Shown piece after piece: positions 52,810 to 62,118 of a stretch of 64,000 bases of DNA. This DNA is from Hydrolagus colliei (lineage: Eukaryota). A program made the position numbers and the translations under genes. Within the stretch, counting starts at the first letter, position 1; every line of letters starts with the position of its first letter. The notes beneath the pieces were generated by a model that had not been told where the DNA came from, ran no database searches, and saw nothing but the letters and a program-made list of their open reading frames with translations. The DNA lies in assembly GCA_035084275.1 (NCBI GenBank), contig CM068753.1, forward strand, positions 15,934,001 to 15,998,000, written 5' to 3'.

Positions 52810-52893
52810 TTTGTCACTATTTTGGAAGGGGTACTGTCCAAACTATCAAGATACGATGAAGGGACTCTCTTCTCTTCCTTTCTGTCCTTCACA
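52810..52893 (+). CDS. CADPS: CADPS exon, [28 protein letters not shown]; phase 0-0
   Basis: tgttag acceptor, ACA|gtaaga donor, conserved peptide. Confidence 0.95.
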
Positions 52894-53317: not shown

Positions 53318-53900
53318 AAAAATTACATTTGTACAATGCCTTTCACTTCGGAAGTAAGTCCCAAAGTGCTAGAACGTCAGGGATTTGGACCAGAGCTGGA
53401 AGTTGTCAGCAGGGGATTCAGATTGGGAGGGAGGGTTGGAGGACAGAGAGGGTAGGAGTAGGAGAGTGCCCAAAGACACTGTCAAAAAGGAAGGTCTTGA
53501 GACATACCTTGAAGGAGGCAAAGGAGGGAGCAAGGGACCGCAGGTCTTAATTCTCCAAGGGTGAGGGCAGATAACCTCAAAGCTCGACCCTCGAAGTTGG
53601 GGAGAGCCAGAAACAGGGGCCATGGAGCAGGCTGGAGCCCCCCTAAGCGGAGGACACGGGCAGGTTGACATAAGGTTTGCAGGTCACAGAGGTAGGAGGG
53701 GGCATGGAGGGCCTTGAAAGCGAGGATGAGAATTTTTAGTTCTATCCTCTGAGGGATGGGGAGCCAATGGAGCCAGGCAAAGGTAGGGTTGATGGAGTCA
53801 TGGAGCCTGGTGTAGGAGATGATACAAGTTGCAGAGTTCTGGATGATCTGCAGCTTTTGGAGGGAAGAGTTGAGAGGGCTGACAAGCAGGGAGTTGGCAT
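53318..53900 (-). mobile_element. L2-type LINE 3' fragment
   Basis: Collinear with 17066-17592 (gccttgaaag.gagga..ag.at, gatctgcagctt.tggagggaagagttg). Confidence 0.82.
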
Positions 53901-54076: not shown

Positions 54077-54109
54077 GTGAAAGCAGCTTCAAAGTACGTG
54101 GATGTACCT
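54077..54109 (+). CDS. CADPS: CADPS 33-nt exon, VKAASKYVDVP; phase 0-0
   Basis: ttaaag acceptor, CCT|gtaagt donor, conserved peptide. Confidence 0.94.
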
Positions 54110-54254
54110 GTAAGTCCAACTATTATTCTGTCACTTTGTTTTGTCCGCTTACGTAATCATATATATACGCGTCAAATTCTTGAATTTAAAAAATAAGCAA
54201 ACTTTGAAACCGAAGAAATCCATTTTTGAAATTCACAAGTATTTTACCCTCACA

Positions 54255-57254: not shown

Positions 57255-57918
57255 CAACTTCCTCCCCCACATCCGGTCCCTCACCAGCACCACCTTCGTC
57301 CATCTCCGCCATATTGCCCGTCTCCACCAATATCTCACCCCAAAAGCTGCCGAAACCCAGGTCCGTGCCTTTGTCACCCCTTGGCTGGACTATTCCAAGG
57401 CCCTCCTCGCTCATCTCCCCTCCACCACCATTCATAAAATCCAGCTCATATAGAACTCCACCTGCATTCTCACCCAAGCCAAACTTCGCTCCCCAATTCC
57501 GCAGTCCTCACCAGACTTCACTGGCTCCCTGTCACAGAGCAGATCGATTTCAAGATCCTCACTCTTGTATTTAAATCCCTCCATTCCTCTGCACCCCCCT
57601 ACCTCTCTAACCTCCTCTCTCCTCACAGCAGTATCTGCTGCCTTCGCTCAACTGGGTCTGGCCTCCTCCTTGTCCCTCGAATCTTCCTCTGTCACCATCA
57701 GAGGCCATGCTTTCAGCCACTATGCCCCGAAACTCTGGAATTCCTTCACCTCACCCCTCCTTTTCCATCTTCAGGTCGCACCTGAAAACCTTTCTGTTCA
57801 ACCACACCTTCAGTCACCTTCCCCCTCCCCTCCCCCTGGCTTGGCTCCATTATTGTGAAGCTATCTGAGACACCGTCTGGCATAGAGGGTGCTATATAAA
57901 TGCAAGTAGTTGTTGTTG
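57255..57918 (+). mobile_element. L2-type LINE 3' fragment with (TTG)n tail
   Basis: Remnants RLDYS, LHWLPV and GHAFSHYAPKLWNS, ends gctatataaatgcaagtagttgttgttg. Confidence 0.85.
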
Positions 57919-58608
57919 TGCATGTAAAATGAGATGATTACACTCACTGACTTCCAAAGCCTCTGCTAACAACAACAAAATGACACTTGTATAGCACCTT
58001 TCATATGAGGAGCACGTCCTGCTAGGATCACATCTTACCCAAGTCAAAGGCCCCAAATTCCCTTAGCTTGGTAGGACCATTTTGCTTTTAAATTTTAGTT
58101 TTTGCAGCAATACTGTAAATTTCTAAAACTTTGTCTTAACTTGAAAGCCCAGTTCTTTTTGAGAGCTGCAGAACAATGTCTTACAAAATAAGAGTGAATT
58201 TAAGCATTTACTACAATTCTGTGCAATCCTAAAATGCTATGGCAAACTGTCTTCCATCTAAGAATGGGTGAAATTTCAAGCCCCTAGAGCTCAAGGTGCC
58301 CCTGAACCTATTGCAAAGTCCAACCTAAACACTTTCCCAAATAATATCAATTGGGATAGCACCTTGTTGTAATGTCCTCTTAACACTCTTGATATACGTA
58401 TCTGTGTGTAATGGATTTGTAATTCAACATTATTTCTATGTTATACAAAGACCTGAGAAAGAATATAATCTTTACCTTTTTTGGTTTATTAGGAATAAAT
58501 TATTGTGCACTATTCAACTCGCCATGTATTCAAGAGAATGATTACAGACTCTGCAAATGCAAACCAATGTGATGTATAATTCTCCCTTTCTTTGTCTTTG
58601 CTTAACAG

Positions 58609-58716
58609 AAACCTGGGATGGATGTGGCAGATGCCTACGTGACCTTTGTGCGACAGAGTCAGGATATCCTGCGTGACAAGGTCAATGAGGAGATGTATAT
58701 AGAAAGGTTATTTGAT
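58609..58716 (+). CDS. CADPS: CADPS exon, [36 protein letters not shown]; phase 0-0
   Basis: taacag acceptor, GAT|gtaagt donor. Residues DVADAYVTF and IERLFD favour CADPS over CADPS2. Confidence 0.96.
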
Positions 58717-60647
58717 GTAAGTAAATGCCTTCTCCTCCTTGCTCGCCATGGAGGAGATTGTTCAAAATGTGACAATACGTAAGACAGAGGGATAAGTCAC
58801 ATTTTGAGAAATTCAGTGACCGTTGAGATCTTTTCTGTCCCTCTGACTCAGGCTCCTCTCTGCCTTTCTCTGTTCTGACTCTGCACTGTAGTCTACCATG
58901 TATGTTGCGTCAGCTCCTGGTCTGTCTGCATGTAACTTCTGGCGCAGTGCTTTCTTATCAGGAGGTTTTGTAGCTCACGTCCATGAGCAACTTTTGTAGG
59001 AGATGGAACAGGATTCTCTCTGAGAGCACCTGGAGCCTATATGACATATAACAATAATGTACTTAAATACCTTGTTTTGCTTGCTGGAACTACAGTATTA
59101 GGTACAAAAAAAAGAAATCTGCTTTTGTATTCTTGTATCATCTACGAATAGCATGTGAATGATGTGAAACTAGTTGTCTCTGGAGCACTGTTCATATAGG
59201 TATAGATCTTTACATTTAATAAAATGTAAAAAAAATATATAGTTATCACATTTAGAAGAGGTAAACTGTGGCAAGAACTTTAGCAAAGTTACCTGCTTTG
59301 AAACTGTGGCATTAATCTTGTTAAAACAACACTGACCAAATCGTCAATTGAATTAAGTTTTTGCAGTGAATTTAGTCAGCAGACCAATAGACGATGTTTA
59401 TAACTTTGTCTTTCATACTGTTTGGTATCGCAGTGCTTTTGTGTCGTTCTGTGGTTTGCAGTGTGCACATTGATGTGCTTTTTTTATAATCCATTGTTAA
59501 AGCTATTCTATTGATTAGTGCTTAACTAGTTGCTAAGTTGTTTTTCAAACAGTGTCTTCACATCACTTAAAGGTAGTCCTGTAGTGTGGTGTTATATGAT
59601 TAAAGCAGTTTATTTTCAATACTTTAATTAAACTTTTAAGGTTTCTACTTGCAGTGCATCGTTTCTGAATATCTCACGCAAGGCTTTCTACACTAGTCTA
59701 ATCTTTTATCTTGCTTTCATCATTGCTATGTCAATCGTCCAGTTTCCATAAAAAAACTTTCTGTCTTTTATTCCTTTCTGATTGCCTTCCATCTCTATCT
59801 TTTTCTTTGATCTGTTTTCCAACTAAAATGAAACTTATCTCTCATATCCAATGTTTTGTCACATTGCAGCCAGTGGCATGATTTCGAGTCAAATAATCTT
59901 CCTGTGTACATCTACTAGCGTGACCCACATCTTACAAGAATGTTTCACACATGCATAAAGTGTGATGGGAAGGCAAGAGCAGGGTGGTCCTCAAAGCTCT
60001 ATGCATGTATTTTCTAACAGGGAGTTTCAAATTTGTAAGAAATGGGAAAATTTTCATCCATTTAGTAGGCATTGAAGACACAGTCAATCCAACTGACTTT
60101 TCATTTGTCACTGAAATCAACAAATGTTGCTTTGAATGTTGTAACTGCCAACAATTCGATTTAGAAATGGTTGCTATGTTGGTTGCATCCAATGTCTAAT
60201 CCTTTTGTCATTTTGTGCAGTTTATTTGCTGTAGATTTCTCTACTGCATTTTTCTTTTTATTTCCGGGGGCATTTCCCTCTATTGCCATCTGCCAACAGG
60301 CCAGATTTGGTCTAAATTTGAAGGTGATCAACTCTACAGTGTAAGCTTAGCACTGTCAGACACACAATGACTTGACTGAGGCCCGGTGAAACCCATTCAA
60401 CAAGTGTAGCCTCGTTCAAACTGGTCGGCCTGGGATTTAATGGTAACTTCACTGCTTGGAAGTTCATAAATCTGTTGCAGCCTTTCGTGTTGCATTTTGT
60501 ATTTGTGACTTTGTCTATGCTGTTGCCTTGAATTGCAGAATCCCTAGCATCTGAACGATTATGGCAGGAGCCAAGATCTCAACCTTGAAGCATGTACAGC
60601 AGATGTGCAATGAGTACACCAAACATTATGAGTTGGCCAAGAAAGTA

Positions 60648-60742
60648 TACAGTCAATCTACTTTACAGTATATACTGTGAAGTGCTCTGATGTGTCTTGA
60701 TGACATCATGAGGCTCTATATCAAAAGCCTGGGTTGCTATTA
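60648..60742 (+). mobile_element. SINE 3' fragment
   Basis: tacagtcaatctactttacagtatatactgtgaagtgctctga matches the SINE tail family. Confidence 0.65.
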
Positions 60743-62118
60743 CAAAATGCTGAAATGCCAAGCAAAGCCTCCAGTAATGTTTATGTTCTCCATTGTTCAT
60801 CTATTTTGTTAAACCTTATGGCCTGCAAATTTTAAATATCCAAATACTTTTTGGATATTGCTTATTGTGTTTTGGTGCATTTGTATATATTTAAAAATGC
60901 AATATCTGAAACCCAGGCAAACCAATAGAACAAGGTAACCAAGATGCCATTCAAAAATGAAGGTTATTATAATATACTATATTAATAAGAGTATTCAATG
61001 ACAGGTGCTTTGTTCAAAACTGTTCAATTGAAAGGGATGCCTGAGTGAATCACATTTTGGTGAAGGAAAATGTATTCAGTGAAGATTCATTGAAAGTGTT
61101 CTCTCGGCTGTCTGTTTCTGATTTGAAGCATAGCCAAAGGAAAAAATATATTTTAATGATATTTATTTTATTGCACATTTTTTTTAGCAGTTTGGGGATA
61201 TGTGAAAGTAAATATAAAATCACGTAGTAGTCTTGAAAGTATAAAATTCTGTACCAGCACAGTTGACTTCTAATGATGTGGTGACATTTCAGTTTTTTTT
61301 TAAATCATCTGATCTTAGTTGATTTATACAGAGGTCAAGACGAAAGATGTCCTGGTAACAGTATATGTTCTCCATGTAAAGCAATTCAGAGCATGTAAAT
61401 ATCAGTGGTTTGGGTGAGTAACAGTGTTAGTAAAATACAATTTATATTTGTGAGTAAAATTTTTATTTGATTTATTTTCTGTGGGTTTCAAAACCTTTGC
61501 CACCTGCCTTCATTTGTGAATGGAAGAATTGGACATGTTATGGTCCTAGACATTCCTAATTAAGCAAAAAACTGAATTGCTTTGAATATAAAATAAATTG
61601 GTTAGAATGCATTTGACGGTAACTGCCTTGTTGGTGCATTGGTTAGACCTTATGGAGCTCATTGGTCTGAATCCCTCCTGAGGCTGCTGTAACAAGGAGG
61701 ATAAATTGGCCCTGGCCTTCTTATAGTCTTGATTCTGGCCCCTGTTTAGCACCTTTTACTGGTTATGGATGAGTGTGGTAGCCGGGTAGGCAGAGTTCAG
61801 GTTTAGTTATTGACACTCACTGCCAAGGCTTGCACAATGGTCTTTTGGGCAAACGCCCGGAGGAGAATTCATGGCCCAGAACAAGGAGCCTGGAAACCCA
61901 GAACAGAATCATATAACAATGTGAAGAAAACATTTTGGAGACACTTAAATATGCTTTTAAAAAATTTAAATCATTTGGTTTGGGTGTAAATTAATTTTGA
62001 AATTCGTGTGTAATTACAGTATTCTGCATTTCCTCTTTTAGTTTCCTTTCTTCTTCCCACCACCGCCACTCCAGCATTTTACCTTTTGTTATTTACCCTC
62101 TCTGTTTTCCACTTTTAG

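Follow-up and report, generated by a model that had tools for sequence, protein, structure and literature searches.

The CADPS locus

The window, i.e. the whole stretch of 64,000 nucleotides analysed here, contains most of the CADPS (CAPS1) gene on the + strand. The Callorhinchus milii CADPS protein, used as a tblastn query, matched 16 exon-sized segments of the window and of the genome next to it, and the closest full-length protein is elephant-shark CADPS. The exon of main interest, at 58609-58716, is 100% identical to residues 1209-1244 of C. milii CADPS over 36 aa (tblastn), which confirms the assignment of the gene to CAPS1 made in a preliminary description of this DNA; Pfam MUN gives a weak match to this exon, under the cut-off (E 0.0027). 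Downstream lies an intron of 20,720 nt, followed by two exons past the window end (extended positions 79437 and 82438). This order is that of mouse CADPS exons 27-29 as given in the relevant passages of bioRxiv 10.1101/178202. For the last exon, CADPS isoforms of C. milii lead the full-coverage matches, with 98% over 100% of the query (best 120 of 5789 matches). These matches point to a holocephalan or another cartilaginous fish. A paralogous exon, which we take as CADPS2, is found on another contig (C13:28435985-28436089) and carries an Asp at the position of the edited Glu. A short CADPS exon of ~10 codons, at about 54080-54110, was missed by tblastn and was located via a motif match to C. 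milii CADPS.

The features discussed below are the following, with the evidence in brackets:

58609..58716, + strand: third-from-last coding exon of CADPS, MUN/C-terminal region, 36 codons (tblastn)
58680..58716, + strand: exonic 5' arm of the predicted duplex, with 58691-58702 and 58704-58716 firmly paired and 58680-58689 ambiguous (folds)
58687..58689, + strand: Glu codon with A58688, orthologous to the adenosine recoded E/G in mammals and zebrafish, editing here being predicted (peptides, zebrafish spacing, alignment)
58717..58724, + strand: 5' splice site in a weakly paired, predicted 8x8 internal loop, +29 to +36 from A58688 (folds)
58725..58805, + strand: intronic 5' arm, with predicted helices 58725-29 (paired with 59875-79), 58766-75 (59856-65), 58777-80 (59851-54), 58787-97 (59833-43) and 58800-05 (59825-30) (folds, shuffles)
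58826..58969, + strand: intron stretch of 144 nt conserved in organism G, ~91% (alignment)
59037..59075, + strand: blocks formerly proposed to dock on the exon, present and predicted to be unpaired with it (block check, pairing probabilities)
59825..59879, + strand: 3' arm of the predicted intron-intron extension (folds; within a stretch that organism G conserves)
59888..59925, + strand: predicted editing-complementary sequence (ECS), 13 bp, an A:C mismatch and 12 bp against the exon, with U59916 opposite A58688 in one model (scan, shuffles, human geometry)

The codon orthologous to the edited site

The known recoding site of CAPS1 (CADPS) is numbered E1252G/E1250G in mouse/human. The synthetic CAPS1 peptides quoted in the published text are VNEEMYIER and VNGEMYIER; A58688 is therefore the correct base, and the choice of the Glu codon 58687-58689 in the preliminary description was right. 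According to passages of bioRxiv 10.1101/178202, editing of CAPS1 is reported in human, mouse, rat and zebrafish, and not in fly or worm; the human site is described as edited at about 20-24% in the excerpts concerned. Zebrafish has two edited genes, and the cadps rows of Buchumenski 2021 (PMC8096273) list edits at -9 (K/R), 0 (E/G, 62%), +3 (E/G, 23%) and +9 (Y/C) for cadpsa, and at 0 (34%) and +22 (synonymous Leu) for cadpsb. The offsets -9, 0, +3, +9 and +22 all fall on adenosines in the chimaera exon, at the edge or inside of the exon arm predicted here. The E/G site is orthologous in the two species, editing being measured in zebrafish and predicted here. As cadpsa and cadpsb are edited, the CAPS1 edit was already known to be older than the bony-fish/tetrapod split. 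A58703, which belongs to the Glu codon at the A:C mismatch, was also considered as the edited residue, and is ruled out by the published peptides together with the zebrafish spacing.

No zebrafish ECS is given in the passages and rows of PMC8096273 used here, and PMC12295206 and PMC10984384 add nothing further on structure in the passages used. Among the titles and abstract starts listed by our search, which covered few subscription journals, none reports CADPS editing or an ECS in cartilaginous fish. In its available text, a shark editing study testing NEIL1 and KCNA1 mentions CADPS 0 times. For sharks, excerpts of the literature describe conserved codons without editing for NEIL1 or KCNA1, and published tests on NEIL1, KCNA1 and GRIA2 with negative or mixed outcomes. 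Parts of bioRxiv 10.1101/2022.11.10.515815, PMC8659423, PMC10713624 and PMC9638939 were also drawn on.

Local stems downstream of the exon

The preliminary description had placed an editing structure in the start of the intron (58717-59075), described as GC-richer than the rest and full of complementary blocks, and had proposed that a multibranch fold of this region attaches to the exon on either side of the codon. The five block pairs cited are all present, two of them relying on G-U pairs and one on a bulge. The GC content is indeed higher (0.443 vs 0.360 for the in-window intron, equalled in 4 of 99 windows there), but it is ordinary over the whole 20,720-nt intron, whose mean is 0.382 and where 13% of 408 windows reach 0.443. 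The abundance of complementary blocks near the exon is at chance level. The fold of 58717-59075 has a z of -0.98, with 15 of 100 shuffles equally good, and the comparison with shuffles that had been suggested for 58600-59150 gives a z of -1.04 (14 of 100 equal or better). Watson-Crick stems of at least 7 bp number 5, vs a shuffle mean of 3.6, and stems of at least 10 bp including G-U number 6 vs 2.7, which is borderline; the stem counts made in this region are matched by 31% (the 7-bp stems), 24% and 5% (the 10-bp stems) of 200 shuffles. Exact 7-bp complements to the exon number 2 in 359 nt, vs 0.82 expected (20% of 1000 shuffles).

The docking itself is contradicted by the folds: the docking stems have a probability of 0.001 or less in three of three windows, the short one included. 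The 58785/58845 hairpin has a probability of 0.95 in the short window and of 0.004 in folds that take in 59825-59843, since its 5' strand then finds its partner there. The block 58785-58794 is thus part of the predicted structure, but with 59833-59843 as its partner and not 58836-58845. For the other two intron stems (58850-58856/59032-59038 and 58869-58876/59005-59012) the probability is 0.002-0.12.

A predicted distal exon-intron duplex

In mouse, the ECS lies ~1.5 kb into the same intron, where it was proven by disrupting and compensatory mutations (passages of bioRxiv 10.1101/178202). The whole chimaera intron was therefore scanned for partners of the exon. For the exon 3' half together with the splice site, the best partner in the 20.7-kb intron is 59874-59946 (-50.9; mean -25.4, SD 5.1), and with the whole exon as query the best downstream partner likewise starts at 59874. 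A narrow query of 44 nt places 60478-60521 at the top (-37.5) and the predicted ECS second (-32.4). This other candidate was rejected: it is best for the narrow query only, scores lower with longer queries, and 60421-60513 is replaced in organism A; long folds excluded 60478-60521.

The core duplex (58691-58716/59888-59913) comprises 25 bp between segments ~1.2 kb apart, with a predicted energy of -38.7 kcal/mol. It is composed of a helix of 12 bp (58691-58702/59902-59913), an A:C mismatch (A58703/C59901) and a helix of 13 bp (58704-58716/59888-59900), and both helices have a pairing probability of 0.98-0.99 in three long windows. Against the next 3 kb, 58680-58716 gives the same -38.7 kcal/mol, vs -23.9 +/- 2.1 for block-shuffled 3-kb introns, none of 341 shuffles being as good. 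When the same was done for 16 approximate CADPS exon ends (12 shuffles each), this exon end had a z of -5.8, one other a z of -3.4, and the remaining 14 lay between -1.0 and +1.8. The CADPS2-like paralogous exon has no partner better than chance in the next 3 kb (-24.9). The general idea of an intronic ADAR structure thus appears sound, as judged from the predicted distal duplex. In a genome search 59810-59940 and 58760-59080 match only themselves, and a search of 58745-61000 against Rfam gave no match at E up to 1.

The exon end with the z of -3.4 is a pyrimidine-rich one upstream (52860-52892), which pairs with a purine-rich, repeat-like intron segment at 53436-53472 (-48.4, 12 shuffles); this match is probably one of low complexity.

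Beyond the core, folds of 1.3-2.0 kb predict five intron-intron helices, listed above with their partners, at a pairing probability of about 0.9 or more, and of 0.94-0.99 in the three long windows. Core and extension together make a predicted rod of about 63 bp. Taken alone, the intronic arm is equalled by 3 of 247 shuffles, the arm 58760-58810 having been chosen after the fold was seen. The candidate base for editing is itself less firmly placed: the A58688:U59916 pair has a probability of 0.61, 0.26 or 0.02 depending on the folding window, and A58688 is taken by an exon-internal hairpin at 0.46-0.94 when the exon 5' half is included.

An alternative three-way junction was also seen, in which 58620-58634 pairs with 59918-59932 and an exon hairpin, 58635-58649/58676-58689, holds the edited base. 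Such a junction could compete with the editable form.

Comparison with known CAPS1 structures

Table S11 of Pinto 2014 (PMC4053846) gives, in the rows used, predicted complementary regions with no gene names or sequence. One row falls 1470 nt downstream of the site in human CADPS and describes a block of 25 nt, with the predicted opposite base coming 3 nt after it (BED reading; PMC4053846); this row is tied to CADPS by coordinate alone and is itself a prediction. In the chimaera, the block 59889-59913 likewise has 25 nt and is followed at 3 nt by U59916, which lies 1228 nt from the site. The human predicted ECS and the element found here thus share the same duplex geometry (25-nt block, +3 opposite base), which is a match of geometry and not of sequence. 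The exon (third from last), the Glu codon and the position of the partner in the next intron are also those of mouse/human CAPS1, at 1.2 kb here vs 1.47-1.5 kb. The element here belongs to a likely holocephalan and not to a bony vertebrate. While a small hairpin is the description given for mouse, ~38 more intron-intron bp are predicted here; a mammalian extension may already be published. Another difference is that editing of mammalian CAPS1 is experimentally known, whereas here it is predicted from genomic DNA. By description, as found in passages of PMC10404624, the class of downstream-intron ECS (GluA2 Q/R, 5-HT2C) likewise consists of exon-intron duplexes which need unspliced RNA and nuclear ADAR1 p110/ADAR2.

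Conservation in relatives

Four of 22 listed sequencing runs were compared over 58761-60560. The alignment of organism A runs from 59159 to 60420 and contains 107 substitutions and 35 gap letters; among the gaps listed none falls in 59750-60010. Run X20 gave 2 reads at 58761-59003 and run X7 none; neither was counted as evidence. For organism G, the contig gives just two aligned segments, 58826-58969 (13 substitutions, 1 gap) and 59820-59917 (8 substitutions over 98 nt, 92% identity), the second of which spans the whole predicted 3' arm. As the flank in organism G is similar but below the 80% cut, the edge of this island is partly a threshold effect. Seven loose letters after 59917 in organism G were not counted; they presumably adjoin an Illumina adapter.

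Seven differences are listed in organism G within 59820-59917. Five are in predicted loops, one changes an A-U into a G-U pair, and one is at a helix end. This bias towards loops lends the structure modest support, with a hypergeometric P of 0.047 for the 7 listed differences and of 0.020-0.093 with the eighth, for one low-depth contig and the 3' arm alone. No compensatory double change was visible, as coverage in the relatives is limited to the 3' arm. At 59851, a paired position of the 3' arm, the organism G contig, which is possibly RNA-derived, has an A-to-G change that may be a species difference or editing.

The other conserved stretch, 58826-58969, has no stable fold (z -0.04). Its pairing with the exon 5' half was considered and is at chance level, 56 of 228 shuffles being as good. 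It contains many pyrimidine and UG tracts, acceptor-like AG sites and a TGCATG, which we take to be the Rbfox motif; it may be a splicing-regulatory element.

Proposed mechanism and alternatives

On the basis of these folds, we think it probable that 59825-59925 folds onto the final part of the CAPS1 exon and the initial 90 bases of the intron as a rod of ~63 bp, which would likely let nuclear ADARs edit A58688 before splicing. The rod would form once Pol II has passed 59925; nuclear ADAR1 p110 or ADAR2 would then bind the helices 3' of the site and deaminate A58688 (Glu to Gly), and splicing would afterwards remove the intronic guide. This sequence of events is modelled on the mouse experiments and on the downstream-intron ECS class as described in parts of PMC10404624. 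The genome contains genes with the deaminase domain, with 19 PF02137 matches at 5 loci, in which individual ADARs are not distinguished. Two further points are speculative. In the model with U59916, G58687 would face A59917, and this G:A pair might favour editing in a 5'-GA context; G:A pairs are reported, in the portion of the literature used, to speed editing at 5'-GA sites. The splice-site loop (+29 to +36) would be near the ADAR offsets reported there to boost editing, 26 nt for ADAR2 and 35 nt for ADAR1, and could have the same effect. We infer that the duplex would form in vivo, that it is probably homologous to the mammalian ECS (a geometry match between unaligned sequences) and that, by analogy with mammals and zebrafish, A58688 would be edited in this species.

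Three other explanations were weighed. The local multibranch fold within 58717-59075, supposed to dock beside the codon and guide editing, is hardly credible: its blocks exist, its 58785/58845 hairpin forms when 550 nt are folded alone, the conserved stretch 58826-58969 is within the region and stems of at least 10 bp are borderline enriched (5% of shuffles), yet docking is negligible in every window, the docking duplex scores -20.9 vs -40.1 for the distal core and the z is about -1. Moreover, the proven mouse element is ~1.5 kb away, and the organism G alignment falls below 80% after 58969, ahead of the docking blocks. It is also quite improbable, if slightly less so, that the distal complementarity arose by neutral coincidence or is a decayed inverted duplicate of the junction between exon and intron. 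Covariation was not seen, and another exon end reaches a z of -3.4 through its pyrimidine/purine-rich match, but none of 341 shuffles is as good as the real intron, block length and offset are those of the human prediction, organism G conserves the stretch, most of its differences lying in loops, and there is no such complement in the paralogue.

The most serious competitor, although still an unlikely one, is that the distal duplex is real and conserved while A58688 is edited little or never, the rod serving mainly the splicing of the exon or the editing of A58691 or A58703 (opposite C59901). A58688 sits where the end of the rod frays, follows a G and is captured by the exon hairpin in some windows, and the rod surrounds the 5' splice site. 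A58703, for its part, is in an A:C mismatch, a classic editing context. Shark tissues are also described, in excerpts of the literature, as without editing at some conserved codons. However, in the predicted human structure the site likewise lies at the end of the duplex and is nevertheless edited at the level quoted above from published excerpts, the orthologous A of zebrafish is edited at 34-62%, and the cadps rows of the zebrafish table contain no +15 site, as editing of A58703 would give (PMC8096273). The editing of A58688 within the distal duplex is thus the reading that we prefer.

Age of the recoding

The known CAPS1 ECS most likely has its orthologue in the element 59888-59925, to which a predicted intronic extension is joined. 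In the preliminary description, recoding was suggested to date back to early jawed vertebrates. The part of this claim that reaches bony vertebrates stands, as editing in zebrafish is published; the step to cartilaginous fish is probably right as far as can be judged by inference, and, zebrafish editing being already published, it is this bony-to-cartilaginous step alone which would be new. A broader scenario is more tentative and in our view somewhat doubtful: that both the CAPS1 recoding and its ECS were present in the last common ancestor of jawed vertebrates, and that the chimaera rod of ~63 bp loops out the 5' splice site at an ADAR offset and so couples editing to splicing of the 20.7-kb intron. 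If true, the presence in a cartilaginous fish of an ECS of the human type would push CAPS1 recoding back to the ancestor of jawed vertebrates, a node earlier than the zebrafish data imply, and recoding sites common to vertebrates are few. Since both this edit and this type of element are known, the surprise is modest. The intronic extension is a feature to seek in mammals, and exact coordinates are now given for testing CAPS1 editing.

Upstream of the exon, at about 57885-57920 and 57968-58003, two short and loosely inverted stretches were observed, which we assume to resemble the tail of cartilaginous-fish SINE/LINE elements.
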